Positions 16,985-44,922 of a DNA stretch of 64,000 bases are shown here, piece by piece. The stretch covers positions 1 to 64,000 of IMG/VR virus record IMGVR_UViG_3300028920_000027. One strand, written 5' to 3'. Both the position numbers and the translations under genes were made by a program. The stretch's first letter is position 1. The number at the start of each line of letters is the position of its first letter. The stretch comes from a virus. The notes under the pieces are model-generated. The model was not told where the DNA came from. It saw only the letters and a list, made by a program, of their open reading frames with translations, and searched no databases.

Positions 16985-17836
16985 TCATCTGTTGGGTTTC
17001 CTGCCCCGCGAAGGTGTTTTCTTGGGGAGCGGAATCGACCAGTCCTTCGTCGCATAGAGCACTGCGGCGACGTGCTTGCAAACGAAGTTCTCCCGGTCCG
17101 GGTCGCGAATATCGGGGGCACTGGCGGTCCCCTGAAGCTTACCTAGTTGGTACTTCTCGCTGGTCGAGTGGAACTCAGGCCCCTGCCATCGCCACGCAGG
17201 ACAGGTGCAGCTCAGTTCCAAGTCCATCTTGGCGAGCTGTGTCACGTTCCCCTTGCGCACCGCCCGCAACTTTACCGTGTAGTCGTGATTACCCTTCACA
17301 TTGAAGACCCAACGGAGATTGGCTCGGTCGATGCGCTTGACCGTGACTTCAGCACGACTGGCCCGGTCCAGTATCTTGGGGTTGAGCCCGTCCAGAATCT
17401 CGCCGAGCTTACGGGCGACCCGTACCCCCACCTCCGCCACGAAAGCGCGCACAGGGGTAAATTTGAGCCGGTACAGCTCAGCTACGAAGTGGGCCGAGGC
17501 ATTGTGGGAGTTGGGCACGCCGTCGCGGTAGGGGTACTTGGTCTTCGGGCTGTTCGAGTGGTCGCCCAGACCGCCGTACCCCGTGTCCCCTGATTGCCCC
17601 CGTTCATCTTGCCGGGTCTGGTGCTTGGCGAGGTCGTAGGGCCCATCGACCCGATGCATGCTGGTGTCGCTCTTGGTGTGCTCACGGGTGTGATCACCCG
17701 GCTTGGCGAAAGTCTTGGTCCCCGGAACGCTCTCGTCCAAAGGCAAACCTCGGCCAGCCGGCTCACCCTCGGGAAGTTGGGATTCAGCCGTCGTCGTGTC
17801 GCCATAGGGCGGACGGGTGACGAGAGGCTGCATCAT
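16985..17836 (-). CDS. SWIM zinc-finger protein
   Basis: LSCTCPAW...FVCKHVAAVL fits the SWIM CxC-xn-CxH motif. Confidence 0.8.
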   Translation of the reverse strand: MMQPLVTRPPYGDTTTAESQLPEGEPAGRGLPLDESVPGTKTFAKPGDHTREHTKSDTSMHRVDGPYDLAKHQTRQDERGQSGDTGYGGLGDHSNSPKTKYPYRDGVPNSHNASAHFVAELYRLKFTPVRAFVAEVGVRVARKLGEILDGLNPKILDRASRAEVTVKRIDRANLRWVFNVKGNHDYTVKLRAVRKGNVTQLAKMDLELSCTCPAWRWQGPEFHSTSEKYQLGKLQGTASAPDIRDPDRENFVCKHVAAVLYATKDWSIPLPKKTPSRGRKPNR

Positions 17837-20253
17837 ACTTTCCAGGGGTCTACCTCGGAGGCGGTCTTGGGCCGCGCTGCTTCCATCGCCGTGGGAAGCG
17901 CCTTGAGCTTCTGGATCATCTTGCCCTTGTCGGGGGTACCATACTTACGAATCCGCCTCGCAGCGGGCCCGCTGAAGGCTTCCAGGACCCAACGCCCACG
18001 CTCGAAGCCCAAGCTCACGTTGGCGTAGTAACTGTTCTGGAGAATGCCGTTGACCCACTCTTCTTGAGGGTCGAGTCCCAAGGTCATCATGAGTGATGCG
18101 TTGTGAGCCCCGCCGATGTTGCTGATGCGAACCTGCTTGTAGGGAACGGGAAGAGCCTCGGCGACGCGCCGGAAGTCCTCCAGGTGGCCCTTCAGCTGCT
18201 CAGCCCACTCCTTCTTGTCCTCGGGAACTTGGGTGATATCGGTCACCGCAACCCTGGTACCCCCTGTCTTCCGCTTAAAGAGCGTCCCCGCATTCTCTAA
18301 ATGGAACCCCTCGGGCCGCTCGTGTTCCTTGAGAGTCTCCCGAATCTTCTTGGCATCAGGGACGACAGACTTGCCCCGCACCTTGACGTAGCCCTTGCGA
18401 ACGAGACTCTTGATGACCTCGTTGTCGGGCCCGTACTCACCGAGCTTGTTCTCGTCGAAGTACTCCTTCCGGTAGCCGGCCTTGTAGTGTACCAAGTGGT
18501 GCATCGCGACCAGCTCTTTTGGGGAAAGGTCGCTCGACGCGGTCACCTTCCAACGGTCAACTTCGACAGTGGCTTCCTTGCCCGTGCCTGGCCAAGGGTC
18601 AGCGCCGCCCCAGCCGTTGTTGTCGCCCCGACCGTAGTCCTTGGACTCCACCATCCTGACCGGGCGAATCCGCTTACCGTCGATCATGGTCGGTCCGTAG
18701 AGCTTCCACATCCGCACCGAGTCAGCGCCCTCAACTACGGGCCCGCCCCGCTTGTCGAGGATGGCGGCCTGGAAACTGGGGCCTGCTGCCGAACGATGGG
18801 GTCCTAGGGAGTACTCATCCGTCAGAACGATGGTCTTGGGGGCGCTCATCAACTCCCGACTGACGAACTGAAGGACCCCCCGACGGTCCATCGTCTGGGG
18901 GTCATCATAGCCCCGCTCGACCGTCAAGTTGTTACCCTCCCCTCGAATGCGAATCGAGTCATCAGATGCCTTCTTGATGTTCGAGCCATCCTCGTCGACA
19001 TGAGAATCCCACTTCTTCTTGTCCTCAGGACTCATGTTCTGCGTGGGATCGGCGGGCTTGCCCTTCTCGAACTTCCCTTCCTTCCCGTCCGCCGATACGG
19101 TGGTGGCCTCTCTACCGAGGTAGAGGCCCACGGGGTCGCTGACCTCAGATGCCTTGATGTTCGAGCCATCCTCGTCGACATGAGAATCCCACTTCTTCTT
19201 GTCCTCAGGACTCATGTTCTGCGTGGGATCGGCGGGCTTGCCCTTCTCGAACTTCCCTTCCTTCTCCTCGGCTGAGGCCGAGTGGTTGTAGAACGCCTCA
19301 TCAGCGATGGTCGCTTCATAGTCGCGCCACTCCTGCTCTGCCTTGGCGCCTACCAAGAAGGTCTTGTCGTTGGGGAAGTACAGTACGCGGTCGCCCTTCT
19401 TAAAGGGTGTGCCGTCACGAGCCGTACCAGGGTAGCGCGCCTTGATCCACACAGGGTCATGTCCCCGTCGGGCACCCTGCTTGTCTTCGGACGCCATCCG
19501 CAAACCGAGAAGGGTCTTGACCTTCCGTGCCTGGTGCCGGAGTGCCTTGAGTCCTGACTCGATAAAAGCTGGCACCTCCTGCCCCATCATCGCTTCGGCA
19601 TCAACCTCTAGCTCATCAAGCGCTCGTTGAACCGCGCGCTCGTTAGGAAGGTTTGCCGCCATGATGTAGTCCCCCACCACGGTGCGCAAGAAACTGGCAA
19701 GCTTCACACTGCTCATGGTGCCCGACGCCGCTTGCTCCAGGGTTTCAGCCGCGGACTCGAAAAGGTCAGCCGCGGACTCCCTCGAGCGTGCTGTCTTCCG
19801 GCCGTTCTCCAGCTCTCTGATCAGGGCTACCAGGTCACGAATGGGGACCTCGTCTTTCCGGGTCTTGGCGGCGAGTTCACGAAGGGTCTTAGCTGTGGTT
19901 CTGGGGGTCATTGGCACTCCTCGACGCCGCACATGGCGCAACCGATTCTCTTCCAACACACGCTCCAGTTCCAAAACCTCGTTCTGGGGGAGGTCTTGCT
20001 TCAGCTCCTCGTAGTCAATGCGGTCAGCGGCCAAAGCCACCGCACTCAATGATTGCTGAAGACTGGCGAGACACTCAGGAGCTTGGTCGATGAGATGCCC
20101 AGCGACCTCAAAGAAGTGGTCACGGTGGCTCGACTTCTCAATAAGCTGTAGACCATCTGTCACGCAACGGGTGAGCCGGGCAAGGTACAACCGTGCGTTG
20201 CCCAGTTCTTCCTGAAGGTAGACGGTAACTCCCGATGCTGTCTTCTGTCCCAT
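17833..20253 (-). CDS. Modular putative head/internal protein (possible polyprotein)
   Basis: 806 aa of unrelated short modules separated by KTAS/KKAS/KEAT/RMAS-type motifs; contains an exact internal duplication. Confidence 0.75.
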   Translation of the reverse strand: MGQKTASGVTVYLQEELGNARLYLARLTRCVTDGLQLIEKSSHRDHFFEVAGHLIDQAPECLASLQQSLSAVALAADRIDYEELKQDLPQNEVLELERVLEENRLRHVRRRGVPMTPRTTAKTLRELAAKTRKDEVPIRDLVALIRELENGRKTARSRESAADLFESAAETLEQAASGTMSSVKLASFLRTVVGDYIMAANLPNERAVQRALDELEVDAEAMMGQEVPAFIESGLKALRHQARKVKTLLGLRMASEDKQGARRGHDPVWIKARYPGTARDGTPFKKGDRVLYFPNDKTFLVGAKAEQEWRDYEATIADEAFYNHSASAEEKEGKFEKGKPADPTQNMSPEDKKKWDSHVDEDGSNIKASEVSDPVGLYLGREATTVSADGKEGKFEKGKPADPTQNMSPEDKKKWDSHVDEDGSNIKKASDDSIRIRGEGNNLTVERGYDDPQTMDRRGVLQFVSRELMSAPKTIVLTDEYSLGPHRSAAGPSFQAAILDKRGGPVVEGADSVRMWKLYGPTMIDGKRIRPVRMVESKDYGRGDNNGWGGADPWPGTGKEATVEVDRWKVTASSDLSPKELVAMHHLVHYKAGYRKEYFDENKLGEYGPDNEVIKSLVRKGYVKVRGKSVVPDAKKIRETLKEHERPEGFHLENAGTLFKRKTGGTRVAVTDITQVPEDKKEWAEQLKGHLEDFRRVAEALPVPYKQVRISNIGGAHNASLMMTLGLDPQEEWVNGILQNSYYANVSLGFERGRWVLEAFSGPAARRIRKYGTPDKGKMIQKLKALPTAMEAARPKTASEVDPWKV
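18973..19264. repeat. Exact 112-bp direct repeat, period 180
   Basis: 18973-19084 is identical to 19153-19264; encodes EGKFEKGKPADPTQNMSPEDKKKWDSHVDEDGSNIK. Confidence 0.95.
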
Positions 20254-20282
20254 GGTGGAGCGCCTTGCTCCAAAGGCGCCCC

Positions 20283-20291
20283 ACCAAAGGA
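20283..20291 (-). promoter_or_regulatory. Variant late-motif candidate TCCTTTGGT
   Basis: Intergenic, 29 nt upstream of ATG 20253; two mismatches to TCCTTTTAT. Confidence 0.3.
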
Positions 20292-20301
20292 TTAGGGAAC
20301 C

Positions 20302-21381: not shown

Positions 21382-21427
21382 TCTCATCTCCTGGGGGCAG
21401 GGAAAAAGCCCCCACTCATACAAATAG

Positions 21428-21436: not shown

Positions 21437-21440
21437 TTAG

Positions 21441-22809: not shown

Positions 22810-22819
22810 ACTCTACACC
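22810..22819 (-). promoter_or_regulatory. Candidate GGTGTAnnnT promoter, leaderless
   Basis: GGTGTAGAGT ends 5 nt before the ung ATG. Confidence 0.6.
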
Positions 22820-24880: not shown

Positions 24881-25759
24881 TTAGAAGCGCTGCACAACGA
24901 GGCGCGTCTCCCCCTTCGGGTTGAACGCGCCGATGCCGACGTTCTGGAAACACGAGAACCCAATGGTGCGGGCCTTCGGGTCGTCAGCCGACAGCACGGT
25001 GAGTTCCGTGCGAACTGGGAAACGTCCGAAATTCTCGGGCTCGGTGCAGAGGTACACAAAGCCGGCTGGAACCAGACGGCTGGTGATGATCTGCGCTCCC
25101 CAAAGCTGTGCCTGAAGACCAGTCTTGAGCAGCGTCGCTTGGGACTCGATGTCCAGGATGTCGCGACCGAACTTGCGAATGTCCGCGTAGTCCACGCTGT
25201 TCATGAAGATGCGAGCGACACGCAGGTCGTGACGCTCGATCTCCGCGAACGCATCCGCCAGTACCGAGGGGCTGATGGGCGCCACCACGTTGATGTCTGG
25301 GTTCGTCTGCCCGGGGATCGTGTCGAAGCCCGACACCGCGATGGAGTCGAGAACCGCGAAAACACGCTCGTCTTCCGCCGCCTGGATCTGTGCCTTCGCC
25401 AGGTCCTGAGCGCGTTCGATCAAGTCGAATCGACGCTCCTTGATCTGGGTGAGCGGGATCTCCGGATTCGAGGCGATCTCGAACAGCGGGAAGATGACGC
25501 GCCGAGGCTTCTGGATGGCGAGGATGTTCTCGCCTTCCTCACCCACGACAAATGCCGTGACCTCGGGATCCTTGTCGTAGATCGGAAGGGCGCCATCAGG
25601 AAGCTGCTCGACCAAGAAGGTCTTGCGGCCGACAGCTGTATAGTCCCTGCGGAGGCGCAAGGGTTGGATCATGGAAGCCGCGAGCTTGGCGCGACCGGCA
25701 GCCGTACGGATGTACTGGCTGATGACCTGTTGTTTCTGAGCGTTGCTGACCTGGTTCAT
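24881..25759 (-). CDS. Major capsid protein (HK97 fold)
   Basis: 292 aa, last gene of the protease-scaffold-decoration run. E-loop-like LPDGALPIYDKD, backbone helix LIERAQDLAKAQIQAAEDERVF, A-domain LWGAQIITSRLVPAG. Strong AAGGA RBS. Confidence 0.88.
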   Translation of the reverse strand: MNQVSNAQKQQVISQYIRTAAGRAKLAASMIQPLRLRRDYTAVGRKTFLVEQLPDGALPIYDKDPEVTAFVVGEEGENILAIQKPRRVIFPLFEIASNPEIPLTQIKERRFDLIERAQDLAKAQIQAAEDERVFAVLDSIAVSGFDTIPGQTNPDINVVAPISPSVLADAFAEIERHDLRVARIFMNSVDYADIRKFGRDILDIESQATLLKTGLQAQLWGAQIITSRLVPAGFVYLCTEPENFGRFPVRTELTVLSADDPKARTIGFSCFQNVGIGAFNPKGETRLVVQRF

Positions 25760-26507: not shown

Positions 26508-27746
26508 TTAGGAAAAGTGGTCGCTCACGTCAGGAGCCGAGTTCCAAAGTCCCGAAAGCTGGTCGACATCGTTGCCGCTGGCGGACTGACCCGCAGGGGT
26601 TCCGGAGCTTCCAATCTTCGAGACACCGCTCGTGGGGCGAGTGCCCACGGTACGGGTGGATGCAGTGTGCACGCCGGGGGCGGCGGGCTGGACAAGGGTA
26701 CCGTTCTCAATGGCCGCCGCCTTGGTGGCAGCCTGGACTTCACCGTTGCTCGCAAACAGGCTGGTGAGCACAGCGTCTTCCGGCCCCAGGTCAACCTCAC
26801 CCACGTCCATCGTCGGGGAGTCGATCATGATATCGTCGTCCATGGCTTCGAGGGCCATCTCGTCGTCCATGGCTTCAGGAGTCATTCCGTCACCACACGC
26901 CATGTCGTCCATCAACGCGGCTTCGAGGTCGTCGTCCATCGCCAGGGGGCTACCACCCTGGGAGAACGCTGTGCTGTCCTGGCTCGCCTGGGGCTGACCC
27001 TGAGCAGCTGCGATCTCGGCTCGAACCATCGACCGCAGCTCCTCGGCGAACTGTGTCATGTTGCCCGTCTTGGCAGCGTCGAACGCCTTCTTGAACTGCG
27101 GGGGTACTTCACCCTTCTTGGACTTGTCGCCATCATCCTTGGACTTGTCGCCATCATCCTTGGACTTGTCGCCATCATCCTTGGACTTGTCGCCATCATC
27201 CTTGGACTTGTCGCCATCATCCTTGTCACCCTCACCCTTCTTGGGCGCGGCGGCGGCGGTCTTGTCACCGTCATCATCGTCATCGTCACCACCCTCGTCT
27301 GCTCCGGTCTGATTCAGAGTCGCTAGACGGTTGTGAGTCTCAATGAGGTTGAGGTCGGGCATGTCCATGAATGCAAGCGCCTGCTCTTCGACCGCTGCTT
27401 CGGTAGCCCGTGTACCGAGCATCCAGCGCGCTGTGCGCGTGGCCACGCTAGCCTTCTTCTCGATGGTCTCGTCGTCGAGGCCAGCGGTCTTGAAGGTGTC
27501 GGCACGGAACTCAGGCTGCCCGATCTCGTTACGACGAGTCTGGCCACCTGCCTGCTCTGCCTTCCAGGTGCCTGCCGGCGGATGCACGTCTTCAGCAAAC
27601 TCGCTTGGGCCACCAATGACGTAGTCACCTGCCCCCGGCTGCTTGGAGAGGTGGTCTTGGTTCATGGCGCGAGGATCTTCCGCCGTGCGGAGATTCGCCG
27701 CCTTGGTGCGGATGACATCTCGGTTCCAGGTGGTGCGCTCGCGCAT
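26508..27746 (-). CDS. Putative scaffolding protein
   Basis: 412 aa, acidic and low-complexity, located between the protease and decoration/MCP genes. Confidence 0.7.
   Translation of the reverse strand: MRERTTWNRDVIRTKAANLRTAEDPRAMNQDHLSKQPGAGDYVIGGPSEFAEDVHPPAGTWKAEQAGGQTRRNEIGQPEFRADTFKTAGLDDETIEKKASVATRTARWMLGTRATEAAVEEQALAFMDMPDLNLIETHNRLATLNQTGADEGGDDDDDDGDKTAAAAPKKGEGDKDDGDKSKDDGDKSKDDGDKSKDDGDKSKDDGDKSKKGEVPPQFKKAFDAAKTGNMTQFAEELRSMVRAEIAAAQGQPQASQDSTAFSQGGSPLAMDDDLEAALMDDMACGDGMTPEAMDDEMALEAMDDDIMIDSPTMDVGEVDLGPEDAVLTSLFASNGEVQAATKAAAIENGTLVQPAAPGVHTASTRTVGTRPTSGVSKIGSSGTPAGQSASGNDVDQLSGLWNSAPDVSDHFS
27117..27221. repeat. 21-bp perfect tandem repeat x5 (DDGDKSK)
   Basis: cttggacttgtcgccatcatc repeated five times. 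Confidence 0.95.
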
Positions 27747-27796: not shown

Positions 27797-29284
27797 TCAG
27801 GAGCTACCAAGGTCGTAGAGGCGCCCCTTGGCGATTAGAGCGTCCGCCTCGGACACGGTTGGGGTTCGACCCATTGCGCGTCGGCAAGCCGCCATGTACC
27901 CATTCTCATCTGCATATGCGGCTACCCCGCCCACTGCGAGAACCGTCCGATAGACGTCTTGCTCCGTGGGCAGCCGGGGTTGACCGGTGAACTCGTCGAC
28001 ATACCTCGACAGGGCCAGCATCGAACGCGGCGTGAAGGCACGCGCCATGCGGACCCGGTTCCACCCACCATGGTGGTAGAGAAACAGCCCCCACAGCAGG
28101 TGGGACAGCACCTTGCGGTCTGACACCTTGCGACCCAAGCGAAGAGCCACTTTCTGCCACCGAGGATCGACCGTTGCCGTACGGAGCGCTGCTTCCTTGG
28201 TCAAGGTCTCGTTCAAGTTGGAGTCGAGAATAGTGGACTCTGGACCCTTGATCTCATCACGAAGCTTGCGGACCGCACGATCTCGAAGCGCCTCGGCAAT
28301 CTCGTTGACTGCCTTGTCGAATGGTGCGTCTTCAGCAGGCTTTTTGGCCTCTCCACCGCCCTCATCGCCATCGGGCCCGCCGAAATCGAAGGCCAATGAA
28401 CGTGCCCGGTTGGCAGCACGTGACATGAGGTCAGGGTTGGTGACCCTTGGAATCTGACTAAAGGCCACCTGAATCCGCGATCCCATCATGGCCGCTTCTT
28501 GAGGGGTCAGGATGTTGCGGAGAACAGCTCCCGTGAAAGCAGGGTTGGCAACCCAGCTCGCCTCAATGAAACGCACACTGCCGGGCTCGTCTATCAAGTG
28601 ACCGCACAGCTCGGCAATCTTGCGCTGCTTGCCTAGCCCATCGAGGAAAAGATTGCCCTTCTGGTACTTGATGTGGCCGCAGAGCTGTGTCTCGTCCTCG
28701 GCAACATTGCCACATTTGGTGCACGTCGTGTGAGTAACCTGGCACCCCATACTCAACGTCTTCAGCTGCTCCTTTTGGATGGCAGCGATCAACGGACGGT
28801 GCCTGAGATCAGTGGCAACGAGAATGTCGACGTAGATGGAGTCCCCAATGTCGCGGGCAGCGGCATCAATGATTTTGCCCTTTGACATCTCGGGCACCTG
28901 AAGGTGTTCGACGTAGTTCTCACCACCAACGAAGGTACGGAAGCAGGCCAGTAGAAGTCGGCGCTCCCAACAGTCGTTGTTGTTGTTGATGTACTTGCTC
29001 GTCTCGGGGGTGACGTAGTAGTCCGCAAACCGGCGGTTGACCTGGAATCCATTGTCCATCTGCCGACCGAGCTGCCCCGGACCATTCTCAGTATCGACTG
29101 AGGCCACGATGGTACAGTGGCTGAGCAGATACTGATCCGGGTGGAATCGCCGAAGCGCCCCCGAAGCGTTGCGCTCGTTGAAGTGCCCGCCTGCTACGGT
29201 CGCTGCATGGAGAACCTCATCCCAAGCCGCGCGGCTGATGGCGGGCTTGACGAGGGTTGCGTCGGCAGTCTTCAGAAAAGCCAA
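27797..29284 (-). CDS. Prohead maturation protease (HK97/herpes-assemblin fold) with Zn-finger insert
   Basis: YVEH..SKGKIIDA (His), TLSMGC (Ser) and FIEASWVANPAF motifs; CTKC...CGH insert; upstream of the scaffold. Confidence 0.85.
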   Translation of the reverse strand: MAFLKTADATLVKPAISRAAWDEVLHAATVAGGHFNERNASGALRRFHPDQYLLSHCTIVASVDTENGPGQLGRQMDNGFQVNRRFADYYVTPETSKYINNNNDCWERRLLLACFRTFVGGENYVEHLQVPEMSKGKIIDAAARDIGDSIYVDILVATDLRHRPLIAAIQKEQLKTLSMGCQVTHTTCTKCGNVAEDETQLCGHIKYQKGNLFLDGLGKQRKIAELCGHLIDEPGSVRFIEASWVANPAFTGAVLRNILTPQEAAMMGSRIQVAFSQIPRVTNPDLMSRAANRARSLAFDFGGPDGDEGGGEAKKPAEDAPFDKAVNEIAEALRDRAVRKLRDEIKGPESTILDSNLNETLTKEAALRTATVDPRWQKVALRLGRKVSDRKVLSHLLWGLFLYHHGGWNRVRMARAFTPRSMLALSRYVDEFTGQPRLPTEQDVYRTVLAVGGVAAYADENGYMAACRRAMGRTPTVSEADALIAKGRLYDLGSS

Positions 29285-29288: not shown

Positions 29289-30080
29289 TCACCAACTCCA
29301 GGGTTCGCCCGATGGGCCCATCACGTGGTCAGTCTTGAGCAAGTACCCGCACTCGGGACAGGACAACAGTCGAACGCGCTGACCCTCTTCATCCACCTTG
29401 TAGACGCTCTTGCGCATCAAGCCCTCACACCCACGCCGGGGACAACCAAGCTGCTTGCTCGCGAACTCCTTCTTGGTCGCCCGATGCCGACGTCCTGCAC
29501 CCGCCCAATAGGCGCCCGTGCGAATCTGCTGGTTGCGAAACATCTTCGCAGCATTGGCAGCGAAAACGTAGAACTTCTGCACCTCATCACGAAGAATGCC
29601 GTCATCGGTGTACGACGCGAACCGGTGCCACAACTCATCGTAGGCGCGGACCTCACTGGCCCCCCGATGGAAGACCCTAGCCAGCTCCATATGGAACCCA
29701 GCTGGGACTTCCGTCGTACGCCAGGGAGCCTTACGGGCTGCCTGGCGTGCGTCCCAACCGGGGTAGTACGAAAAGTCCAGCGTCGGAGGAGTGTACGCCA
29801 TGAACGAAGGATTCACGCGTACGACGTCTTCGGGAGACACGCGCTCGTTGCCAAATGGCCACTGGACGTCGAGGAACCCAATGCCAGGCAGGACCGAGGT
29901 GACCCTGCCCACATAGGGGCTCAAGTTGCCGGCCCGTGAAGGGATGTACTTCTGGACGGTGTCACCCACCTTGAAGTCACGGGTCAGCTTCCAGTAGTCA
30001 ATCATGTGCCAGTCCCCAGTTAGGTCGAACTCAGCCGTAGTGAGGAGCCAGCGGGCGACCCGAAGAGTCGATGCCTTCAC
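29289..30080 (-). CDS. Hypothetical protein with C-terminal Zn ribbon
   Basis: CPRRGC...CPECG. True start may be MIDYW at 30005, which removes the 50-nt overlap. Confidence 0.75.
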   Translation of the reverse strand: MKASTLRVARWLLTTAEFDLTGDWHMIDYWKLTRDFKVGDTVQKYIPSRAGNLSPYVGRVTSVLPGIGFLDVQWPFGNERVSPEDVVRVNPSFMAYTPPTLDFSYYPGWDARQAARKAPWRTTEVPAGFHMELARVFHRGASEVRAYDELWHRFASYTDDGILRDEVQKFYVFAANAAKMFRNQQIRTGAYWAGAGRRHRATKKEFASKQLGCPRRGCEGLMRKSVYKVDEEGQRVRLLSCPECGYLLKTDHVMGPSGEPWSW

Positions 30081-33000
30081 CCACGGCCGATGACTGGTCG
30101 TCGGAGAATTGCGTCATGTAGGGCTCGTCGGACTCCGTTTGAATGACCCCCACCGTGTTGTCGTACGCACTCATGTAGGGCTCATCGGGGTCCTGCTGCT
30201 CGACGGCGGCGGTCTTGTCGTCGCCCTTGTCGTCGTCGTCGTCCTCATCCTCCTCCTTGGCGGCCTTGAGGCCCATGACCTCGGCCTGCCGACGTACCAT
30301 CGACGCTTCGCCGAACGCCACCTTCTCGACCCTATCGGCCACCTTGTCGAGGCCCTGAACGAGGGTCTTGGCGACCTCAAAGTCCAAACCCCAGTCCTGG
30401 TAGTTGCTCTGCACCCACGCAGCCATCTTGTCGAGGCGGGTGAGGCTTTCCTCGATTACGGGGATGTCGGCCGTCGCCAGCTTGGTGCCACTCATGTCTG
30501 ATGCTCCTTGACTCGCTGTCGCTGTGAGGGTCTCCCCTCCGTACTCTTCTGGATTCTCGCCCGCGAGACGGGCTAGCAGCTTGTAGTAGAGGGTAGGGTC
30601 GACGACTCGACGTAGACCGTGCTCCTCGATGGCATAGTCGAGGGCTGCCCGTAGCTTGCCGTCCCGCGGCAGATCCTGGCTCACCCCCTCACCCAACCAC
30701 TGACGCGCTTGGCGCAACACGGAGGTAAGTAGGACCTTCTCCTCGTCTTCGAGGTCCTGAGGATTTGCCTGAGCCCACTCAGGATAGGGATCGACCGATC
30801 CTGGCTCCTGTCCGTGGTAAACGCCCTGCTTGTCGTGGGGATTGCCCATCGACTGGAAAGGGGGATAAGTAGAAATGAAGCAGGCCGCGACCCGAAGGGC
30901 CGTCCGCTCCCTCACCTTCTCGCTCAACTCCCCACCCTTGCCTGCCCAGGAGTCATACCCCACAGGTTTGGGTGGTGGCTGAGGCTCGGGCTCGTCGAAC
31001 TCTTCGAGTGGCTGGTCCCGGTACCCGCCTCCCCTACGCTTCTGTTCGTGCTTCTCCTTGCGAGCTTCCCAGTCCGTGTGCTCTTCTTCCCACGATTCCT
31101 GAGCGTTTTCATAGGCCTTGGCGTCAAGCTCGACAAGCGTCTTGCGTACCTCGTCGTACTTTTCACTATCCAGGTCACGAAGCTTGGCGAGCACCTGGGT
31201 CCGCAGCATCGTCGCGGCACCATAGTTCGGTGACGACGGGTAGGTTGACAAGCGACGATCCTCCATGTCTTCGGACAGCTTCGACAGACGCTTGGCAATG
31301 GCGCTGGCCGAATCCCGCTCGCTGATCGCATCAGGCCCTTCAAACAAGCCTTCCCGCGCCTCGTAGTAGTCGGCTGCCTGTACGAACCCCGCCAGCGCCG
31401 TCGCGCCGCCGGTCCCCTTCAGGGCATCCATCGTTTTGGCAATCTGACGTTTCACAGGTGGGACTCTCCCAGATTCCATAGCAGCTTCAAACAGTTGCCT
31501 GCCTAATGACTCGGCCTGCTCGGGACTCCTGCTGCTCAACGCCATGCGCGCCACGGCCTCTGACACTTCCTCAGGGATGCCAGCTCCCATGACCTTGACC
31601 GCGATGTTGCTCTGAGCCGCGAGACTCAACCCGACAACCTGCATCTGGTGCTGACGGTATGCCTCGGCTTTCTCACTGTCAGACAGCTCGTCAAAGGGGA
31701 CCTCATGGCCACCCTTCTCCCACGTCTTGGGTGGCTTCACTCGGTCAGGATTGACCTCGAAGTAGTCGATTTTTTCTACGTACTGGCGCACGTTCTTGAC
31801 CTTGATGCGCCCAGACTCAAACGTAGAAACTAGAGACTTGAGGTCTTGGGGATGATACCCCCGCTCAAGTAGCCGACGAGCGCCAGCCTCCCCAAAGGCA
31901 TCCGTAGCCTGGTGGAGAGCTTCTTCAACCTCGGCGCGCTGAACTGGGGGGCGCGCCGGACTCTTGATCTTCAGCTGCTTGGCAACGGGCTTGTCTGAAT
32001 CAGGCTTGTCAAGGTCACGTTGCAGCTCGTCGAGCTTCTTGCTCAACTCGGTTTCACCCTTCGCCAACTCCGCCTTAAGCTTCTTTTCAGCGTCTTTGGC
32101 TTCCCTCAGCTTTTCCTGGGCTTCTTCGACCTTCTTGACTTTACCGTCGCTATAATCCTTAACAACCCTCTCGATGACCCCTACCTGGGTGCCCACCGCT
32201 TCTGTGATGGGGTTGTTGGGAAGAAGACTCGCGAACTCTGAAACAATGCCCTTGAGGGAATCGTAGACAGCACCCAGGTTCTCGACGAACTTCTTGAAGT
32301 CATCGCTCGTTGTGTCAACCAAATCCCCTTCCATGTCGGGAAGATCCGGAACTTCAGGAGACTGCTTGATCTTCTCGACTAAGTCCGCGAGGGCTTTACG
32401 CTCATCGTCTTGACCCTTGTCTTCTTGACCCTTGTCTTCTTGACCCTTGTCTTCTTCCCCTAGCGTACCACCTTCATCTGGCTCATCTTCGTCTGACTCA
32501 TCAGACTCACCCCCCTCATTGGGCTCATTGTCACTGACTTCATCGGGCTCGAGCTCACTCTTCTCAGTAGGCACGTTTCCGTCGGGATAGAAATCCTCAA
32601 CCCACTCCTCGACGGTGTACCCAGTAGGGTCGTCTTCTGGTTCACTCCCCTCGGGCTTCTTGGAATCAAGAATCTCTCGCAACTCGTCAGGCGTGAAGTT
32701 GCCGACTCCTGGGATCGTGACCTTACCGACCGTGTCTTCTTCCCCACCCTCATCGGGCTCGTAGGAATCCGCACGGTCGATGGCCGCCTCGATGGCTGCC
32801 TCGATGTCGTTGGGGCCCATCTTGTCTTCGATGTCCTGACGAGTGTTCCAGTCGTCCCACGCCTGCCAGTTTTTCTCGGCTTCTTCGATCTCTTGCTCGA
32901 CGTGGCGCCGCTGAGCATCGGACAATTCACCCTTGGGCTTCTCTTTCGAGCCGCCCTCTCCCTCCTTGGGCTCGTCCTGCGCGGGCTCGTTGGGAACTGA

Positions 33001-33418: not shown

Positions 33419-35251
33419 TCAGAAGCGGCCGCCACCTTCGTCGTCCGAAGTGGGAGCCATCTTCAATTTGAGGTACTCCGCGATCCTCTCGACCAAATCG
33501 GTCTTCTCGGCCAGTGTCCTGCCCACCTCACTGTAGACAGAACGCATCACCTCGTTGAAAGTCGCGTCGTTGACTGTGAACATGTCGGCTTCGAGCTTCC
33601 TGCGCGTGTCCTCTGGATCGATGTTCAACAGCTCCAGGAGCAAATCGATGCTGATCGAGCCCTTCTGGTACAAATTGAACAGCTGGTCATAAGTGTCCTG
33701 GCTGTCCCGCAGCGGAAGGCGCGTGAAGCTCAGACGAGGGAATAGCACGACCTCCTGGCCCCACTCATCCAGCTCGACGAAACCCATGCGGCGGGCTACC
33801 GGCTTGAACAACTGATCCTCAACGAACTCCTGGATGATCTCGCGAAGGTGAAGGTACCGTTGGTTGATCACCTCCAGCTTGAGTCGATCACCACTGTAGA
33901 GGGCCTCACCGCTCATCAATGATTCGGTGACCCCCAGGCCCGAGATCAATCGACGCTCGGTTTGCTCATACTCACCCTGAAGGTCGAGTAGTCGGTCCCG
34001 GGCACCCATCTCTTCCCAACGAATCTCGTAGTTGGCGACGATCGAGTAGTCAGGGTCGACCAGGGCTAGGTCCACCTGTTCGCGCAAGTCCTCGACGTCA
34101 GCATCAGACAAGCCCTCGGCCCACACGATGCGTTTGGGTGTCATAGCGCGCGAGGCAATCGACGTCTGCGCCTGCCGTAGTTTGTCACGGTAGATGAGGG
34201 TCCTCAGACAACGTTGAAGAATGCTGTGCCCAAGCGGGGAATCTGCACTCTTCCGACCTGAAACGATAGCAACGAACGAGCCCTCGTCGGGGTCGGTCCC
34301 CAGCGGAATGAAGCGACCACTTCGGATATGCTCACGAACTTCCTGAGGGATGTCCTCAACCATATCTTGAGCGTCCAAATCACCCATCTCGGCCTTCTGC
34401 ACGAGCGACCGATCCCGCTCACTCGGAATCAACTCGACCTTCACCCGATCACTGAAGTCGAAACTCGTGAGCTTGACGTGATCAATAGGCAAGACCACCA
34501 GACGAGACCACCCCTTGTAGTTCTTCTGGTAGTGCAGGAACTCCTGCTGTTCCTTGTCCGGCTGGGCCACGCGAACGCGGACGGGCCGCTCTACGGGGGT
34601 GCCGTCGTCAAGGATGACCGAAGCCGTCCGAACCTCGGTAGAATACCCCAGGTTCTCGGGGATCGGGACCTCACTATCCTCGGCGAACACCGCCACGGAG
34701 CCGTCCAACCAGTAGTGGTGGACGATCGTAATGAGCCGCTGGAACAGCTTGGTCTGCTTGCACATCCGCTCGAAGCGGTCGAGAATGTAGCGACCGTAGT
34801 CGTGGGGATCCTTGAACCCCTCCGGTGCCAGGCGCGGCTTGGGGGCGGCGAGGCGAGTTTTTGACAACGGCAACTCCGTGTGCAGGTCGATAGCCTGCCC
34901 CACCAGCTCGTCGTTGTTGTAGAAGTGCCGGAAGATCTCGCGCTGTTCACGCAAGCTCTGAGGCAGCTCCAGAAAGTCCTTCGAGAGCTGAACACTGAAG
35001 AAGTCCTGGGTTGCTGATCCAATGGTGTTGCTGCCGAAGGATCCCCCACCATAACCCATCCCGAGGCCAAGCCCCCCCTCGCCAAGGGTCGGGGAACACG
35101 CGGCCTCCCGCATCTGCTGGCGAGCAAGGCGCTCCTTGTATGTCAGATTCGAGTATGAGCCCTGCGAGACGTAGGGTCTCGTGGTCCGCACCATGACGTT
35201 ACTTGGCGGAGTCCACTGAGGGGAAACGTTGCTGTGCCGGCGCCTAGGCAT
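33419..35251 (-). CDS. Portal protein
   Basis: 610 aa between terminase and head genes. FRHFYNNDELVGQAIDLH, SPLGHSILQRCLRTLIYRDKLRQAQ, ISGLGVTESL pattern is typical of portals. Confidence 0.85.
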   Translation of the reverse strand: MPRRRHSNVSPQWTPPSNVMVRTTRPYVSQGSYSNLTYKERLARQQMREAACSPTLGEGGLGLGMGYGGGSFGSNTIGSATQDFFSVQLSKDFLELPQSLREQREIFRHFYNNDELVGQAIDLHTELPLSKTRLAAPKPRLAPEGFKDPHDYGRYILDRFERMCKQTKLFQRLITIVHHYWLDGSVAVFAEDSEVPIPENLGYSTEVRTASVILDDGTPVERPVRVRVAQPDKEQQEFLHYQKNYKGWSRLVVLPIDHVKLTSFDFSDRVKVELIPSERDRSLVQKAEMGDLDAQDMVEDIPQEVREHIRSGRFIPLGTDPDEGSFVAIVSGRKSADSPLGHSILQRCLRTLIYRDKLRQAQTSIASRAMTPKRIVWAEGLSDADVEDLREQVDLALVDPDYSIVANYEIRWEEMGARDRLLDLQGEYEQTERRLISGLGVTESLMSGEALYSGDRLKLEVINQRYLHLREIIQEFVEDQLFKPVARRMGFVELDEWGQEVVLFPRLSFTRLPLRDSQDTYDQLFNLYQKGSISIDLLLELLNIDPEDTRRKLEADMFTVNDATFNEVMRSVYSEVGRTLAEKTDLVERIAEYLKLKMAPTSDDEGGGRF

Positions 35252-36745: not shown

Positions 36746-37007
36746 CAATGGGCTCTCCTTCCCCAGGCTTCGTCATCCGCCGGCCCTTCATGCGCTTCCC
36801 CCATGCTTTGACCAATCGAGATAGCAAAGAGACATGTCGAGGGTCCCCTGAGACCACCTTTTCCCAATGCCCTCCCAACCGACGGAAGACTCGCCGGATC
36901 ACGAGGTAGTCCCCCTTGAGCAGGGCACACTTCTCGCCGACGCTGTTGTCCACAAACTGTCGGATGGCACGGTTGGCGAACGCGAGGGGTTCGGGCCGAC
37001 GATCCAT
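36738..37007 (-). CDS. Small basic hypothetical protein
   Basis: ATG overlaps the terminase stop (TGATG); 89 aa. Confidence 0.65.
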   Translation of the reverse strand: MDRRPEPLAFANRAIRQFVDNSVGEKCALLKGDYLVIRRVFRRLGGHWEKVVSGDPRHVSLLSRLVKAWGKRMKGRRMTKPGEGEPIDV

Positions 37008-40954: not shown

Positions 40955-41379
40955 GGCTTTGATCCTTGTGGAGGGGTGTCACCACCCCCTTCGGTCCTGA
41001 TCAAATACTGGGACAGGTTTCTCACCGTGGCAAATCCCCTGTCATCTTTGATCCTGACGTCTACCTTCCCTGATTGGTTGTCCCGACCCGTCTCAGCGAA
41101 GTTGCGCACCCCTGCGTTCTCAGGGGTCAATTTGAATACATCCTGTGGTCGGATGTCTCGACGGTCAGCCTTAGCCCCATCTTCTTTTGGCGGTTGCTCC
41201 TTCCCCTCTTGCTTCTGAATCTTGGTCGGCACGTTGAGCAGACGGTTGACGGGAGTCACGTTCTCCCGGACCTTCCGCCGACTCCCAGGTGCCTGGCCCG
41301 CTGCACGGGCAACAAATCGAGCCGCAATATCTGCCCGATAGCGGGCAGCAACTCGAAAAGCGATCGAGCGGTCCGTCAC
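40951..41379 (-). CDS. Basic hypothetical protein
   Basis: 142 aa; RVAARY motif; overlaps both neighbours by 4 nt. Confidence 0.7.
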   Translation of the reverse strand: MTDRSIAFRVAARYRADIAARFVARAAGQAPGSRRKVRENVTPVNRLLNVPTKIQKQEGKEQPPKEDGAKADRRDIRPQDVFKLTPENAGVRNFAETGRDNQSGKVDVRIKDDRGFATVRNLSQYLIRTEGGGDTPPQGSKP

Positions 41380-43316
41380 AGCTCGATACCTTCCTCCAGG
41401 GCTCCGGCGAACTCGACTGCCAAGGGCTCAACCTCGACCTCAGGGTCGAGCTCGATGTCGAAATCAGCTGTGTGCCGCTGTAGATCCATCTCGGCCATCA
41501 TACTGACCCCATTGTTAACGAGATTCGCGAAGTTGATTTCTGTCGATCTGCCGGATGCCAGAACCGCACGCTGGGCCTCGGCCTTACCCTCCGGGTACTC
41601 CACCTGCTCCACAACGGGCCTGCCAATCGCTCGACATATGCCCTGGTCGTTGCGAAACACACACGATGTGCAGGCGCTCCCGAGCTTCACAAACGGGACC
41701 CCCCGGCTCCGATGTAGGCGTGACGCCTCCTTGCAGCCCCGACCGTAATCGTCGTAAACCGTTGGATCTACATAGTAAATCCCCTGAAGTCCCTGCTCGG
41801 CTATGAACGGTTTGAGCTGGGCGACGGAAGCCATGAGGTCTCGCTTCTCGAAACGACTCTTGAGCGCGGCCATCAGCTCGGCCCCGTAGAGCCCCTCATT
41901 GAGGAAGCGGCGAGCTGTCTTGACGACTTCCCGCACTGTCAACCCGCCGGTCGAATGGGCATGCTCGCCCGCGATGTGGGCGCGCTCCACAAGGGCTCGA
42001 GAAGGGAGGCTTTGGACGGCGCCTGGGTGTCCCGAGGCAGCCTTGTGGATGGCTTGCAATGCCGCCTTAGGGGTCTCGCCCCACTCAACCTGAGAAGCCG
42101 TCCTGGGCAGCGTTCCGACGAGCCTGTGCTCCTCGATCACGGCATTGACTGTGGCGGCAGTTAACACCTCGTCAGGGCTCGCCACCAAGCGCTTGCCGTA
42201 CATCATGCACTGGCCCACCTGGGCGTAGATGCACGAGGCACATTTGGGCCCGGCCACGATTGCACGGGTTTTGCTCCCCCGCCGGGCCAAGAAATCAGCG
42301 CCCTCATGGCAAGAGTCGAACGACTCCTGAGTCGTGTAGACTGTGCCGTACACTCCCGCCTCGCGGAAGAGGGGCTCCCAGTGAGCTCGAGTCTCGTCGA
42401 GCAAATTGCCATCGAAGCTCAACTTCAGTGTCTTCAGGAGTCCCAGCTCGCTCCGGCCCTTGTGCATCTCACGGCGCAAAGTCGCCAAGATAGGGCGAGC
42501 CTTGAGCGCCACGGGGTCATGTACCTTCTTCTTGGTGAGACGGTCCGCGGGCACGACCGCAGCTGCCCGGTTGGGCTGGCCACTGAACTGCCGAGGCTCT
42601 GGGGAGGCATCGTCAAGGAAAGCCGCTCGAATGCGTGCCCGAGGGCCCCCTTCAGTCGCGGCCTTGCCTTGGGACCGCTCGATAGCCACCGCCAGCTCTG
42701 TCGTGTACGGCACCTCGACGACCAGCTCCTTGTTGAAGACGGCGCAGTGATTACCATTGGCGTGGCGGCACTCCTGGCAGGTATCCTTGGCCTTGAGGTA
42801 CGGGGCTTTGCCCGCGAACCGACGGACGAACTCCGCTGCCTCGGGACGCCCAGTGTTACAGGTCGGGAAATCAGCGGCGTCGATGTAGTAGCGCCCCAGG
42901 AGCCCCCGCTCGGCCAAAACCCCCGCCAACGCGCTCTTGACGCTAGCAAGCCGAGATCCGAAACGGGTCCGCAGGGACTCGGCGATCCGCCCCGCGTGGG
43001 TCGTGCGCATCATGGCGAGTCGAGCCCCCCGCAAAATATCGGCGGGTTCGGACCGAAGCGGCCCATGCAGCTGGCTCATGTCACCCATGGTGTGGGGCGC
43101 ACCCGCGTTGGGAATGAGGTAGTTCGTGCTCGGTTGCCCTTCGTGACTCCAAAGAGCCTTCAGGTCCGGCACGACGTCAAGGTTCTGCTTTGGTAGGGTG
43201 TCTTCCTTGCGGTAGACCGACTCGTCGACCATCATCCAGTCGAGGTTGGCAGGAGTCTCTCCGTCCGCAACGGTGGCGTCCTTCATAATGTAGCCGATAT
43301 CGCCAATCTCGCTCAT
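41376..43316 (-). CDS. Hypothetical protein with three Cys4 repeat modules
   Basis: 646 aa; three ExGxxGxxY...C...CxxC-x7/8-C modules. Confidence 0.8.
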   Translation of the reverse strand: MSEIGDIGYIMKDATVADGETPANLDWMMVDESVYRKEDTLPKQNLDVVPDLKALWSHEGQPSTNYLIPNAGAPHTMGDMSQLHGPLRSEPADILRGARLAMMRTTHAGRIAESLRTRFGSRLASVKSALAGVLAERGLLGRYYIDAADFPTCNTGRPEAAEFVRRFAGKAPYLKAKDTCQECRHANGNHCAVFNKELVVEVPYTTELAVAIERSQGKAATEGGPRARIRAAFLDDASPEPRQFSGQPNRAAAVVPADRLTKKKVHDPVALKARPILATLRREMHKGRSELGLLKTLKLSFDGNLLDETRAHWEPLFREAGVYGTVYTTQESFDSCHEGADFLARRGSKTRAIVAGPKCASCIYAQVGQCMMYGKRLVASPDEVLTAATVNAVIEEHRLVGTLPRTASQVEWGETPKAALQAIHKAASGHPGAVQSLPSRALVERAHIAGEHAHSTGGLTVREVVKTARRFLNEGLYGAELMAALKSRFEKRDLMASVAQLKPFIAEQGLQGIYYVDPTVYDDYGRGCKEASRLHRSRGVPFVKLGSACTSCVFRNDQGICRAIGRPVVEQVEYPEGKAEAQRAVLASGRSTEINFANLVNNGVSMMAEMDLQRHTADFDIELDPEVEVEPLAVEFAGALEEGIEL

Positions 43317-44629
43317 TGGTAAATGTCCTTCTGGGGATCATGGACGGGCCCTCGTCGATGCTGGGGCGTCGAGTAGTCGTAGCGCACGTAACCGGTTGCA
43401 GCGTCCTCACCAAGGGCGTGGGTGTCGTGCAGCTCCGTGACGTTGGTCTCCTGCCAAACTTGCTCTTCCCCTGGTAGCTCAGATGAAGCCAAGGGCGTAT
43501 TGACGAGACTGCCCCGGTCTCCCTCGAAGTAGTCACTGCGAGCCACAGGCTCCTCAAAGTCTCCCGGAAGCTCACTGGCACTTTGGCGGTTGATGTTCAG
43601 CTCCACCGCGGGCGTCGTGTCTTCGATGAAGAGCGAGGCGTCCTCCTTGGGAAGGCTCTCCTGGGGATTCTCTACACCCTGACCCTTGGCGCCAAAGCCA
43701 AGACCGAAGTCATACCCTTCGGTGGGAGTACCATCGGTGGGGAGCGCGCTGGCTGCCAGGGCGTCGATGGCTTCCCCCCGCCCCATCGCCAGCAAGTCGG
43801 CCATGGTAGGGAGCCGTGCGAACCGTCGGAGGTCACCCCCATCCGAAACCTCTCGCTTCTTGACGAGCTGAGGGTCCTCATCGTTATAGGAACCGTAGGG
43901 ACCCTCACCCGTCGCCGGACCACGTTCATCTACGCGAGGGCCGCCGCTATCGTCCACGGTCGTCGAGGGTACGCTCGCCACCTTTACCCCCAAGTCGTCT
44001 TGAGAAGGTGTGTCCTGGGGGTTTAGGCTGCCCCCATCAGGTAACTTGGACCCCCCACCCTCTCGAGGATCCCTCAACCCTCCAGGACCGTCGTTCTCTT
44101 CCTCGATGTCCTTGATGCGCTGCTCGGCCTCGGCCTCGGGCTGCTCCATCACCTCTGCTGACTCCTCGACGAAACGCTGGATGTCCTCGACGGTATTGGA
44201 GTCGAGCTGGGAAAGCTTGGGCTGCCAGTGAGGCGCCTGGATCTCGTCGTAGAGCGTGTCAGCGATGGCGCTCAAAGCCTCGCTCGCCTCCCAAAGCTTC
44301 TTGCGGGTGTCGGCGATGCTCATGACGTAGCCGCGTCCTCCAAGGAGACCATCAGGACTGATGGTTGTGCTCTTGATGCGACTCAAGTGTCGGTGTGCCG
44401 TGAGCGCGTGTCCAAGCGCCACACTACACGCGAACAATGCCTTGCTGAGCGGCTTGAGGGCCTTGGGGTCAAAACCGTGATCCTTGGGAATGTCGCGCTT
44501 CTGGCTGCCCGCGTTCTGGTCGAATTGAGGGGGCACCTGCCCCTTCATAGATGGGGGTGCGCCCGCAGCGGTCTTGGGGCGCTCGCCTCGTGCATACCGT
44601 GCTGCCACCTTTCGTGCCACATCGCCCAT
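43313..44629 (-). CDS. Hypothetical head-module protein
   Basis: 438 aa; RKVAARY start, helical middle, acidic disordered C-terminus. Confidence 0.75.
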   Translation of the reverse strand: MGDVARKVAARYARGERPKTAAGAPPSMKGQVPPQFDQNAGSQKRDIPKDHGFDPKALKPLSKALFACSVALGHALTAHRHLSRIKSTTISPDGLLGGRGYVMSIADTRKKLWEASEALSAIADTLYDEIQAPHWQPKLSQLDSNTVEDIQRFVEESAEVMEQPEAEAEQRIKDIEEENDGPGGLRDPREGGGSKLPDGGSLNPQDTPSQDDLGVKVASVPSTTVDDSGGPRVDERGPATGEGPYGSYNDEDPQLVKKREVSDGGDLRRFARLPTMADLLAMGRGEAIDALAASALPTDGTPTEGYDFGLGFGAKGQGVENPQESLPKEDASLFIEDTTPAVELNINRQSASELPGDFEEPVARSDYFEGDRGSLVNTPLASSELPGEEQVWQETNVTELHDTHALGEDAATGYVRYDYSTPQHRRGPVHDPQKDIYQ

Positions 44630-44634
44630 CGAAT

Positions 44635-44922
44635 TTAACCCTTCAGGGGGTCTCCCCCATCCTCGAACAGACGCTCGATATAATAGTTACCGCCGTCCTG
44701 TCGAAGGGCCCACAGGTCACGGGTGCTCTTGTTGACCAAGGTCTCAGCGCTCTGACGCTCAAACTCTTTTAGGTCCGCCAAGGACGCAACCTTGACACGG
44801 GCAGAAGCCGTCCGCGGGGGGGTCTGTCCCACGGGAGTGACCACCTCAGGTTCACGAGCGAAGAAGCCGTCCAGACCTCCGCCAGTGCTGATTTCCATTC
44901 CTTTGAACTCGAAGTCGTGCAT
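44635..44922 (-). CDS. Small hypothetical protein
   Basis: 95 aa; RTAS and KVAS motifs; tightly packed. Confidence 0.75.
   Translation of the reverse strand: MHDFEFKGMEISTGGGLDGFFAREPEVVTPVGQTPPRTASARVKVASLADLKEFERQSAETLVNKSTRDLWALRQDGGNYYIERLFEDGGDPLKG

Follow-up and report, generated by a model that had tools for sequence, protein, structure and literature searches.

Maturation of phage heads by a prohead protease is well known, and for large phages cleavage rules have so far been available only for the Glu-specific enzymes of T4, phiKZ and SPN3US. The T4 motif is L/I-x-E and that of phiKZ is S/A/G-x-E; the herpesvirus protease assemblin has the consensus V/L-x-A, followed by Ser, with the cut between Ala and Ser. 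For SPN3US gp245, cleavage follows A-X-E and Ser is the preferred residue at P1′ (PMC10052503). Here we analyse a recurring peptide motif, [KR]-x-A-[SA], in the head proteins of an uncultured huge phage, IMG/VR virus record IMGVR_UViG_3300028920_000027, whose genome is a single contig of 182,335 bp. The window, by which we mean the whole stretch analysed, is the first 64 kb of this genome (positions 1 to 64,000). An earlier note on the same DNA had drawn attention to the motif between 17 and 45 kb, and had proposed that an assemblin-like protease cuts a large set of internal head proteins there. The results described below indicate that the motif is probably the substrate code of a gp21-type prohead protease, which would cut after Ala with Lys or Arg at P3.

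Sequence comparisons support the view that the motif acts like a cleavage code, in that it is specific to head genes, dependent on residue order, found throughout the clade and located at domain boundaries, the last of these being the strongest argument. The most likely specificity, as read from aligned sites, is Lys or Arg at P3, a loose P2 position at which Thr is favoured in this phage, Ala at P1, and usually Ser, Ala or Gly at P1′. Literature searches found no Ala-specific phage prohead protease, which is not proof that none has been described. The literature on Bacillus phage G and the cluster C mycobacteriophages, searched without González et al. (2020), yielded only the length of the mature phage G capsid protein and no cleavage motif, substrate list or autoprocessing sites, and the Tunturi paper contains no proteomics.

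Motif excess in the head module

Matches to [KR]-x-A-[SA] were counted in the translations of open reading frames (ORFs), and the expected numbers were obtained by shuffling the residues of each protein. In the whole range from 17 to 45 kb, 42 matches were observed against 16.5 expected (z 6.6), and z was still 5.9 when shuffling was confined to blocks of 20 residues. This range is the head and packaging module of the phage, and includes the following genes (protein lengths in amino acids, aa):

22142-22804, minus strand: UDG-superfamily gene, not a virion gene
22813-24720, minus strand: LAGLIDADG homing endonuclease ORF, not a virion gene
24881..25759, minus strand: major capsid protein, HK97 fold, 292 aa (phrog_2522, E 3.7e-50)
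25779-26408: decoration-like protein, between the scaffold-like and capsid genes
26508..27746, minus strand: scaffold-like protein, 412 aa, acidic and of low complexity (putative role)
27797..29284, minus strand: prohead maturation protease, 495 aa (phrog_18299, head maturation protease, E 3.6e-10)
33419..35251, minus strand: portal protein, 610 aa (phrog_16240, E 1.6e-25)
37007-40351, minus strand: large terminase with intein (Pfam Intein_splicing and LAGLIDADG_3)

When the nested UDG, homing endonuclease and terminase genes were removed, the remaining virion core contained 39 matches against 13.6 expected (2.9-fold, z 7.0), and the recurrence of the motif across the head proteins is therefore real. 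The density in this virion-core test was 5.65 against 1.57 per 1000 aa (Fisher p 3e-9). There was no excess in the three genes removed (3 matches, 3.0 expected), nor in the 118 kb of genome sequence beyond the window (46 matches, 49.8 expected); window genes outside the 17-45 kb range had 21 matches against 15.5 expected. A comparison of head with other genes, controlled for composition as the earlier note had suggested, thus shows enrichment in the head. Peptides that it had named were found in the translations of the 806-aa protein (QKTASG, PKTASE), the scaffold-like protein (LRTAE, FKTAG, KKASV, DKTAA, VHTAS), the protease (LKTAD, KEAALRTAT), the capsid protein (IRTAAG), the portal (VRTASV), and the 646-aa (PRTASQ), 438-aa (PKTAAG) and 95-aa (PRTASARVKVASL) proteins. 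Its statement that most proteins carry sites was too strong: the range holds 24 ORFs, and 8 of them lack the motif.

The excess depends on the order of the residues. Six reversed or permuted versions of the motif, identical in composition, each gave 15-19 matches where about 17 were expected. The sharpest core of the motif is [KR]-T-A, with 18 occurrences in the virion core against 4.6 expected, and [KR]-T followed by any residue other than Ala is not enriched (50 against 43.8). An unbiased k-mer scan of the head set yielded KT, AS, KTA and TAS. Twenty [KR]TA sites are encoded by 15 different 9-mers; the signal is therefore at the level of peptide rather than DNA, and a DNA-level cause was rejected. 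An artefact of global or local composition was likewise rejected, on the basis of the global shuffles, the block shuffles and the six permutations. Genome-wide, the motif is overrepresented at residues 4-45 of proteins (35 against 19.4, z 3.65).

It might be argued that the motif has no function, and is a by-product of the sequence style of head proteins, such as helical linkers rich in Ala, Lys, Thr and Ser, together with shared ancestry. The separate enrichment of the dipeptides KT and AS counts in favour of such an explanation. It does not account for the flat counts of reversed and permuted motifs of the same composition, in the window and in nearly all relatives, for the excess that survives block shuffling, or for the absence of enrichment of [KR]T[^A]. 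The motif also persists at the unalignable N-termini of the 438-aa family, and in a protease island whose flanks are only 5% identical (see below). We consider this explanation quite unlikely.

Outside the range, an 808-aa beta-helix, tail-fibre-like protein (9916-12342, minus strand) contains 4 matches where 0.8 are expected (p 0.005). None of the four is [KR]-T-A.

The motif in related phages

More than 100 proteins, on contigs of up to 620 kb, share 85-93% identity with the capsid protein. Its identity to the capsid proteins of cultured relatives is 47% for Tunturiibacter phage Tunturi_5, 37% for Bacillus phage G and 27-29% for cluster C mycobacteriophages. The phage thus belongs to a large clade of huge phages. 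The GC (guanine plus cytosine) content is about 59%, and nearly all genes in the window are on the minus strand. The gene order (portal, 1119-aa protein, 263-aa protein, protease, scaffold-like protein, decoration-like protein, capsid) agrees with that of phage G from gp14 to gp27.

Ten relatives were tested first: eight uncultured phages with proteases 46-63% identical to that of the window, phage G and Tunturi_5. An excess, of the forward motif only, was present in the head loci of all ten (z 1.9-5.5), with 11 matches against 4.6 expected in phage G and 26 against 11.4 in Tunturi_5. Reversed and permuted motifs were flat in nearly all of these phages too. The head locus of mycobacteriophage I3 contained 21 matches against 8.5 expected. 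These replications are not fully independent because the proteins of the relatives are homologous, which leaves some room for shared ancestry as the cause. Many sites are not conserved in position despite the excess in relatives, and the motif must therefore be maintained or regenerated.

In mycobacteriophage I3 (L022, 4093-8319) the protease domain forms the N-terminus of the 1408-aa gp103, fused to a scaffold-like protein. Clusters of [KR]-x-A-[SAG] lie within the C-terminal 250 residues of I3 gp102 and gp103.

Fold and candidate autoprocessing sites of the protease

The protease matched phrog_18299 and had no Pfam match at E ≤ 0.01. Sequence searches of the PDB, with the single protease sequence and with a profile, returned nothing meaningful. 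We built an AlphaFold2 model from 72 sequences, with a predicted local distance difference test score (pLDDT) of 82 overall and above 90 in the catalytic domain. The catalytic part (residues 1-250) and a helical C-terminal domain (370-495) were confidently modelled, and the segment joining them was of low confidence. The closest structural match was T4 gp21 (5JBL), with Z 10.8 and a root-mean-square deviation (rmsd) of 3.1 Å over 146 of 166 residues, covering residues 1-249 of the model. Next came about 30 entries for herpesvirus proteases, from varicella-zoster virus (VZV), pseudorabies virus (PRV), herpes simplex virus (HSV), human cytomegalovirus (HCMV), Kaposi's sarcoma-associated herpesvirus (KSHV) and Epstein-Barr virus (EBV), with Z 5-6.7. 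Foldseek gave the same order, with 5JBL first (probability 0.93) followed by herpesvirus proteases. The PHROG match and these structural matches bear out the assignment of 27797-29284 as a prohead protease with the gp21/assemblin fold, that of the serine proteases in MEROPS clan SH. The likeness to assemblin that had been proposed holds at the level of the fold superfamily, but T4 gp21 is structurally closer.

An alignment of 72 homologues, 32-60% identical, divides the protein into a catalytic domain (residues ~1-275), a hypervariable linker (~292-335) and the helical C-terminal domain (~366-495). Four residues, H56, S62, H127 and S178, are invariant. The Ser of the L-S-M-G sequence, singled out in the earlier note, is S178, a candidate for the catalytic Ser. 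The features of interest in the protease are as follows; here and below, a slash within a site marks the candidate cut.

28745..28756, minus strand: L-S-M-G, residues 177-180, with candidate catalytic Ser178; S178, M179 and G180 invariant in 72 homologues
28409..28420, minus strand: R289-A-A/N, candidate autoprocessing site directly after the catalytic domain, cut after the second A
28172..28198, minus strand: K363-E-A/A-L-R-T-A/T, two candidate sites in tandem, where the linker ends and the C-terminal domain begins (second island)

Residues 289-292 form a conserved island in otherwise unalignable sequence, with a flank identity of 0.05. Among the 72 homologues, P3 is Lys in 48 and Arg in 19 (93% Lys or Arg) and P1 is Ala in 68 (94%). 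P2 is Ala in 46, Val in 11 and Thr in 6, and P1′ is Ser in 34, with Ala, Arg, Lys, Asn and Gln also seen. The second island, at 363-366, begins with Lys (35 homologues), Arg (12) or His (7), followed by Ser, Glu or Gln, then Ala (38), Ser (10) or Gly (9), and then Ser (20) or Ala (9). The linker of the protease itself is therefore bordered by the motif on either side. The earlier note had placed sites resembling the herpesvirus R-site after the catalytic domain; the KEAA site that it listed proves to be the second conserved island, but the best candidate, R289-A-A/N, was not in its list.

Cutting at the motif need not be the work of the gp21-like enzyme. A host protease or a second phage protease could be responsible, such as the Clp system of the phage or a host enzyme preferring small residues. 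ClpP and ClpX are packaged in phage G virions (PMC12484599), and the present tests do not tie the motif to one particular enzyme. We think this very unlikely, given that the motif at both linker ends of the gp21-like protease, in 72 homologues, is an autoprocessing signature, that motif and protease family are found together in phages as far apart as huge phages and mycobacteriophages, and that no hydrophobic region resembling a signal peptide precedes the sites.

Alignment of the capsid protein with the phage G cut

The capsid protein of phage G, CL58_gp027, has a precursor of 282 residues (31.2 kDa) and a mature form of 255 residues (28.2 kDa), as determined by N-terminal sequencing (Hua et al. 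2017, PMC5646251, Table 1). Residues 28-282 of the deposited phage G gene product make up 255 residues with a mass of 28.17 kDa, in agreement with the mature mass. The phage G cut is therefore R-V-A-L-A27/Q28. The window capsid protein matches phage G gp27 (PDB 6WKK) with E 2.9e-60, and the HMMER alignment of the two is gap-free in this region, placing A25-L-A27/Q28 of phage G against K25-L26-A27/A28 of the window, which fits the motif. Two sites in the window capsid protein come into question:

25676..25687, minus strand: K25-L-A/A28, predicted maturation cut removing 27 residues, from alignment with the phage G cut
25697..25708, minus strand: R18-T-A-A, second match, inside the putative 27-residue propeptide, status uncertain

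In 120 capsid homologues, position 25 is Lys in 117 and Arg in 3, A27 is present in all 120, and position 28 is Ala in 106, Ser in 7 and Gln in 4. Tunturi_5 likewise has K-L-A-A at the predicted cut. R18-T-A-A is conserved in close relatives and in Tunturi_5 (KSAA), and corresponds to ETEE in phage G. The earlier note had listed this match, IRTAAG, as the capsid site; it is less likely to be the cut than K25-L-A/A28, since the proven cut in phage G lies seven residues beyond ETEE and it is K25-L-A/A28 that aligns with it.

The only maturation cut known in the clade is thus after Ala, and not after Glu or Lys, despite the presence of E18-T-E-E21 just upstream in phage G. Cutting at Glu or Lys would have counted against the proposal; in the phage G capsid protein the cut follows Ala27. 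Motifs of the Glu type show no head-specific excess in the phage studied here: [LIV]xE has z 3.3 in head and 2.9 in non-head proteins, and [SAG]xE is below expectation in both. A Glu-specific code of the T4 or phiKZ/SPN3US type was rejected on these two grounds.

Conserved sites in the scaffold-like protein

The scaffold-like gene has no family match in PHROG or Pfam searches. On one side of it is the protease gene and on the other are the decoration and capsid genes, a position that corresponds to that of gp21 in phage G. Alignment with 14 orthologues shows that the protein ends in a conserved C-terminal domain of about 50 aa. Three candidate sites stand out:

27678..27689, minus strand: site 1, R20-T-A/E-(D-P); nearly every orthologue has [KR]-x-A-D-P, where x is T, Q, K or V
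27480..27491, minus strand: site 2, K86-T-A/G; HPE-[KR]-T-A in 11 of 14 orthologues
26658..26669, minus strand: C-terminal-domain boundary site, H360-T-A/S, 50 aa from the C-terminus

The island fraction of site 1 is 0.92. The boundary site reads [VIT]-R-T-A-[SA] in 10 of the 14 orthologues, mostly preceded by KQA[SA]; two others have KQAS (L013) or KKAS (L015). The tandem KQA[SA]-[VI]RTA[SA] marks the exact border at which a hypervariable Q-rich linker gives way to the conserved RTVGTRP...LSxLWxSAPDV domain. The suggestion that VHTA/S, 50 aa from the end of the scaffold, resembles the herpesvirus M-site gains from its conservation as [VI]-R-T-A-[SA] at the edge of the C-terminal domain.

The scaffolds of two relatives, L004 and L006, have lost both main sites, with HPE-LAK or HPE-MAK in place of HPE-KTA and VAQPA or LRSPS in place of VRTAS; that of L004 retains a nearby KQAS. 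This joint loss may reflect drift of protease specificity or turnover of sites.

Sites in other virion proteins

Six further proteins of the module carry the motif or a variant of it:

17833..20253, minus strand: 806-aa protein, candidate internal head or ejection protein; 6 matches, 1.8 expected, p 0.006
20233..20244, minus strand: N-terminal site K4-T-A/S of the 806-aa protein, immediately before conserved G[IV]T[VI]YLxEEL
43313..44629, minus strand: 438-aa protein, in which a basic tag near the N-terminus precedes the motif; similarity to relatives is confined to the part from residue ~41 onward
44564..44608, minus strand: V-A-A-R-Y tag then P-K-T-A/A, residues 8-22 of the 438-aa protein
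44782..44814, minus strand: tandem R-T-A/S-A-R-V-K-V-A/S of the 95-aa protein, at the edge of its conserved C-terminal domain
30205..30216, minus strand: C-terminal site K1059-T-A/A of the 1119-aa protein, before a conserved V-x-Q-x-D-x-DE-x-YM tail
29511..29522, minus strand: R187-T-G-A-(Y-W) of the 263-aa protein; [KR]-[TSN]-A-[AS]-Y-W in 9 of 9 orthologues, with Gly for Ala in the window
41376..43316, minus strand: 646-aa protein; 6 matches, 1.8 expected, p 0.009

Neither the 806-aa nor the 438-aa protein matches a Pfam family. In the 806-aa family, [KR]-x-A-[SAG] is present in 8 of 8 orthologues (as KVAA, KVAG, KEAG, KTAA, RTAS or KEAA), and the peptides upstream of it vary in length. The N-termini of the 438-aa family cannot be aligned and the site is kept nonetheless: the window protein has VAARY...PKTA/AG, L018 has VLARY...IRTA/SF, and L019 to L021 have MTRTA/GE. 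In the 95-aa family the tandem (RTASARVKVAS, KTASMKVRVAS or KAAGNTMRVAS) divides a variable N-terminal part from a conserved domain of 58 residues; it is found as RKTASMKVRVASL in L018, and as QKAAGNTMRVASL in L019, where it follows an unrelated N-terminal part of 135 aa.

The orthologues of the 1119-aa protein that possess the tail have [KR]-x-A directly before it (KRA/Q, RTA/E, RQA/E, KNA/K or KSA/K), and those of L004, L006 and L013 have a different tail. The last ~130 residues of the protein, after K-T-A/A (30031-30600, minus strand), are a separate small gene in three relatives (L002:79-477, L003:1394-1771 and L011:6528-7013), which fits the idea that they are a separable module. The 263-aa gene (29289-30080, minus strand) overlaps the end of the 1119-aa ORF by 50 bases. 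Its Y-W element is possibly structural rather than a cut site, because the region is conserved. The C-terminus of the 263-aa protein is conserved and resembles a zinc ribbon (CPxC...CPxC).

A second shared element accompanies some of these sites. A basic tag, [VI]-A-x-[RK]-[YF], occurs near the N-terminus of unrelated small proteins, including that encoded at 84202-84900 (minus strand), and usually lies 3-8 residues ahead of a [KR]-x-A-[SA] site. Several small proteins elsewhere show a VAxR[YF] tag followed by the motif, a layout found in genome ORFs 83472-83807 and 99815-100420 (both plus strand). The 1119-aa family has a conserved internal element of related sequence, RVARRF (residues ~70-85 of the window protein). 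The tag is a candidate capsid-targeting sequence.

The basic-x-Ala peptide might itself be such a docking or targeting signal, bound by the scaffold, the portal or the inner capsid for loading and never cut. Its frequent position next to the basic VAxR[YF] tag suggests that packaging signals exist in these proteins, and enrichment and boundary positions alone cannot tell binding from cutting. Several or tandem copies in one protein, as in the 95-aa protein and the KQAS-VRTAS of the scaffold, are however typical of fragmentation sites; the motif also flanks the linker of the protease itself, and at the aligned capsid position cutting has been proven in phage G. Docking without cleavage therefore seems to us an unlikely reading.

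Conservation of individual sites

Several observations weigh against reading the motif as a cleavage code. Although the boundary sites in the protease, the scaffold-like protein and the 806-, 438-, 95- and 1119-aa proteins are conserved in homologues, many of the internal sites that had been listed are not. R208-T-A-S of the portal is not conserved in 8 orthologues, and K177 of a 393-aa protein and K5 of the protease are not conserved either. R405-T-A-S and K466-T-A-R of the 646-aa protein are lost in L018 and L019, and cleavage there is doubtful for this reason. Because such sites are not conserved, about half of the motif excess is without positional support; this half may represent fragmentation sites with fast turnover, or else is unexplained.

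Retention of the strict four-residue motif in orthologues was 0.21, within the 0.06-0.32 obtained for permuted patterns, and shows no excess, as would be expected if the motif had no function; this test is weakened by the many conserved window sites that have no Ser or Ala at P1′, and by the poor alignment of low-complexity regions. A scan for alignment columns with conserved [KR]-x-A found 19 islands against 3-20 in controls, which is modest support. When only islands with variable flanks were considered there were 5, against 0-2 in controls.

The phage G cut itself has Ala at P3 (R-V-A-L-A/Q), and not Lys or Arg, and the P3 rule is therefore not absolute, at least in phage G. In addition, the sequence in PDB entry 6WKK begins with residue 1 of gp27, and so gives no independent support for removal of the N-terminus.

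Proposed maturation pathway and comparison with known systems

If the motif is a cleavage code, maturation could proceed as follows. The protease, the scaffold-like protein and the internal proteins would be built into the procapsid, some of them by means of their short basic N-terminal tags (VAxR[YF]). The protease would release itself from its linker and C-terminal domain at R289-A-A/N and K363-E-A/A. The scaffold would be chopped at about three conserved sites, one of which would detach the C-terminal domain of ~50 residues, and the capsid protein would lose 27 residues at K25-L-A/A28. N-terminal propeptides would be trimmed from the 806-, 438- and 95-aa proteins, and the tail of the 1119-aa protein would be cut off. 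The proposal that the protease cuts a set of internal proteins at Ala/Ser or Ala/Ala bonds is supported as regards Ala at P1 and the boundary sites, but P1′ is looser than Ser or Ala (Gly, Asp, Glu, Thr, Asn and Gln also occur) and P3 is Lys or Arg.

The system resembles the group comprising T4 gp21, phiKZ gp175 and SPN3US gp245 in the fold of the protease (Z 10.8 to 5JBL) and in the position of its gene beside the scaffold and capsid genes. Repeated short sites in many head proteins, removal of N-terminal propeptides and self-trimming of the protease, all predicted here, are further likenesses to the T4 gp21 group. With SPN3US it would share the register of P3 and P1 and the preference for Ser at P1′. 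It differs from this group in that the predicted P1 is Ala with Lys or Arg at P3, whereas P1 is Glu in the others; the capsid protein, at 292 aa, is small and of the HK97 type, not gp23-like as in T4.

Herpesvirus assemblin belongs to the same fold superfamily, at a structural similarity clearly below that to T4 gp21. As in assemblin, the predicted scissile Ala tends to be followed by Ser, and one candidate cut falls just past the catalytic domain and another near the C-terminus of the scaffold, where it would free a conserved tail. In contrast to assemblin, P3 here is basic and not aliphatic, P1′ is much looser, and more substrates are predicted; as judged from the predicted sites, the resemblance to the assemblin site code would be confined to P1 and P1′. 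The protease and scaffold genes are separate in this phage, but fused in mycobacteriophage I3 gp103, as they are in herpesviruses. Phage G (gp19 protease, gp21 and gp27) and the cluster C mycobacteriophages (Bxz1, I3) have homologous capsid proteins and proteases, and the gene order and the excess of the motif are shared as well. In phage G the corresponding candidate cuts follow V-K-T-A in gp19 and K-K-T-A in gp20 and gp21.

A broader possibility, which we put forward only tentatively, is that one lineage, extending from the cluster C mycobacteriophages via phage G to thousands of uncultured huge phages, matures its capsids with a gp21-fold protease specific for basic-x-Ala/small sites, a class of specificity new to phages, and shares with the herpesviruses the Ala/Ser bond and two landmark cuts. 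If this were true, the Ala/Ser chemistry and the logic of R- and M-sites would go back to an ancestor shared by the maturation systems of tailed phages and herpesviruses, and the 'packaged proteome' of huge phages, their internal and ejected proteins, could be read from sequence by the motif combined with the VAxR[YF] tag. A phage enzyme sharing the herpesvirus Ala/Ser bond would bear on the evolution of specificity in an ancient protease superfamily. A K/R-x-A rule would allow mature virion proteins, propeptides and packaged proteins to be predicted from sequence in thousands of uncultured genomes, and would account for the loss of 27 residues from the capsid protein of phage G, which is known but so far without explanation. 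The rule is directly testable, as three cultured systems exist.

Inserted genes and inteins

The UDG gene and the 635-aa homing endonuclease ORF (22813-24720) are inserted directly downstream of the capsid gene, and neither shows an excess of the motif. The 635-aa ORF consists of a LAGLIDADG_2 homing endonuclease, a helix-turn-helix (HTH) and part of an N6/N4 DNA methylase.

In other huge phages, many prohead protease homologues are 600-1960 aa long and give split matches. The breaks fall near residues 100, 125, 180, 190, 203 and 227 of the protease, indicating the presence of one to four inteins. The protease of the window itself contains no intein.

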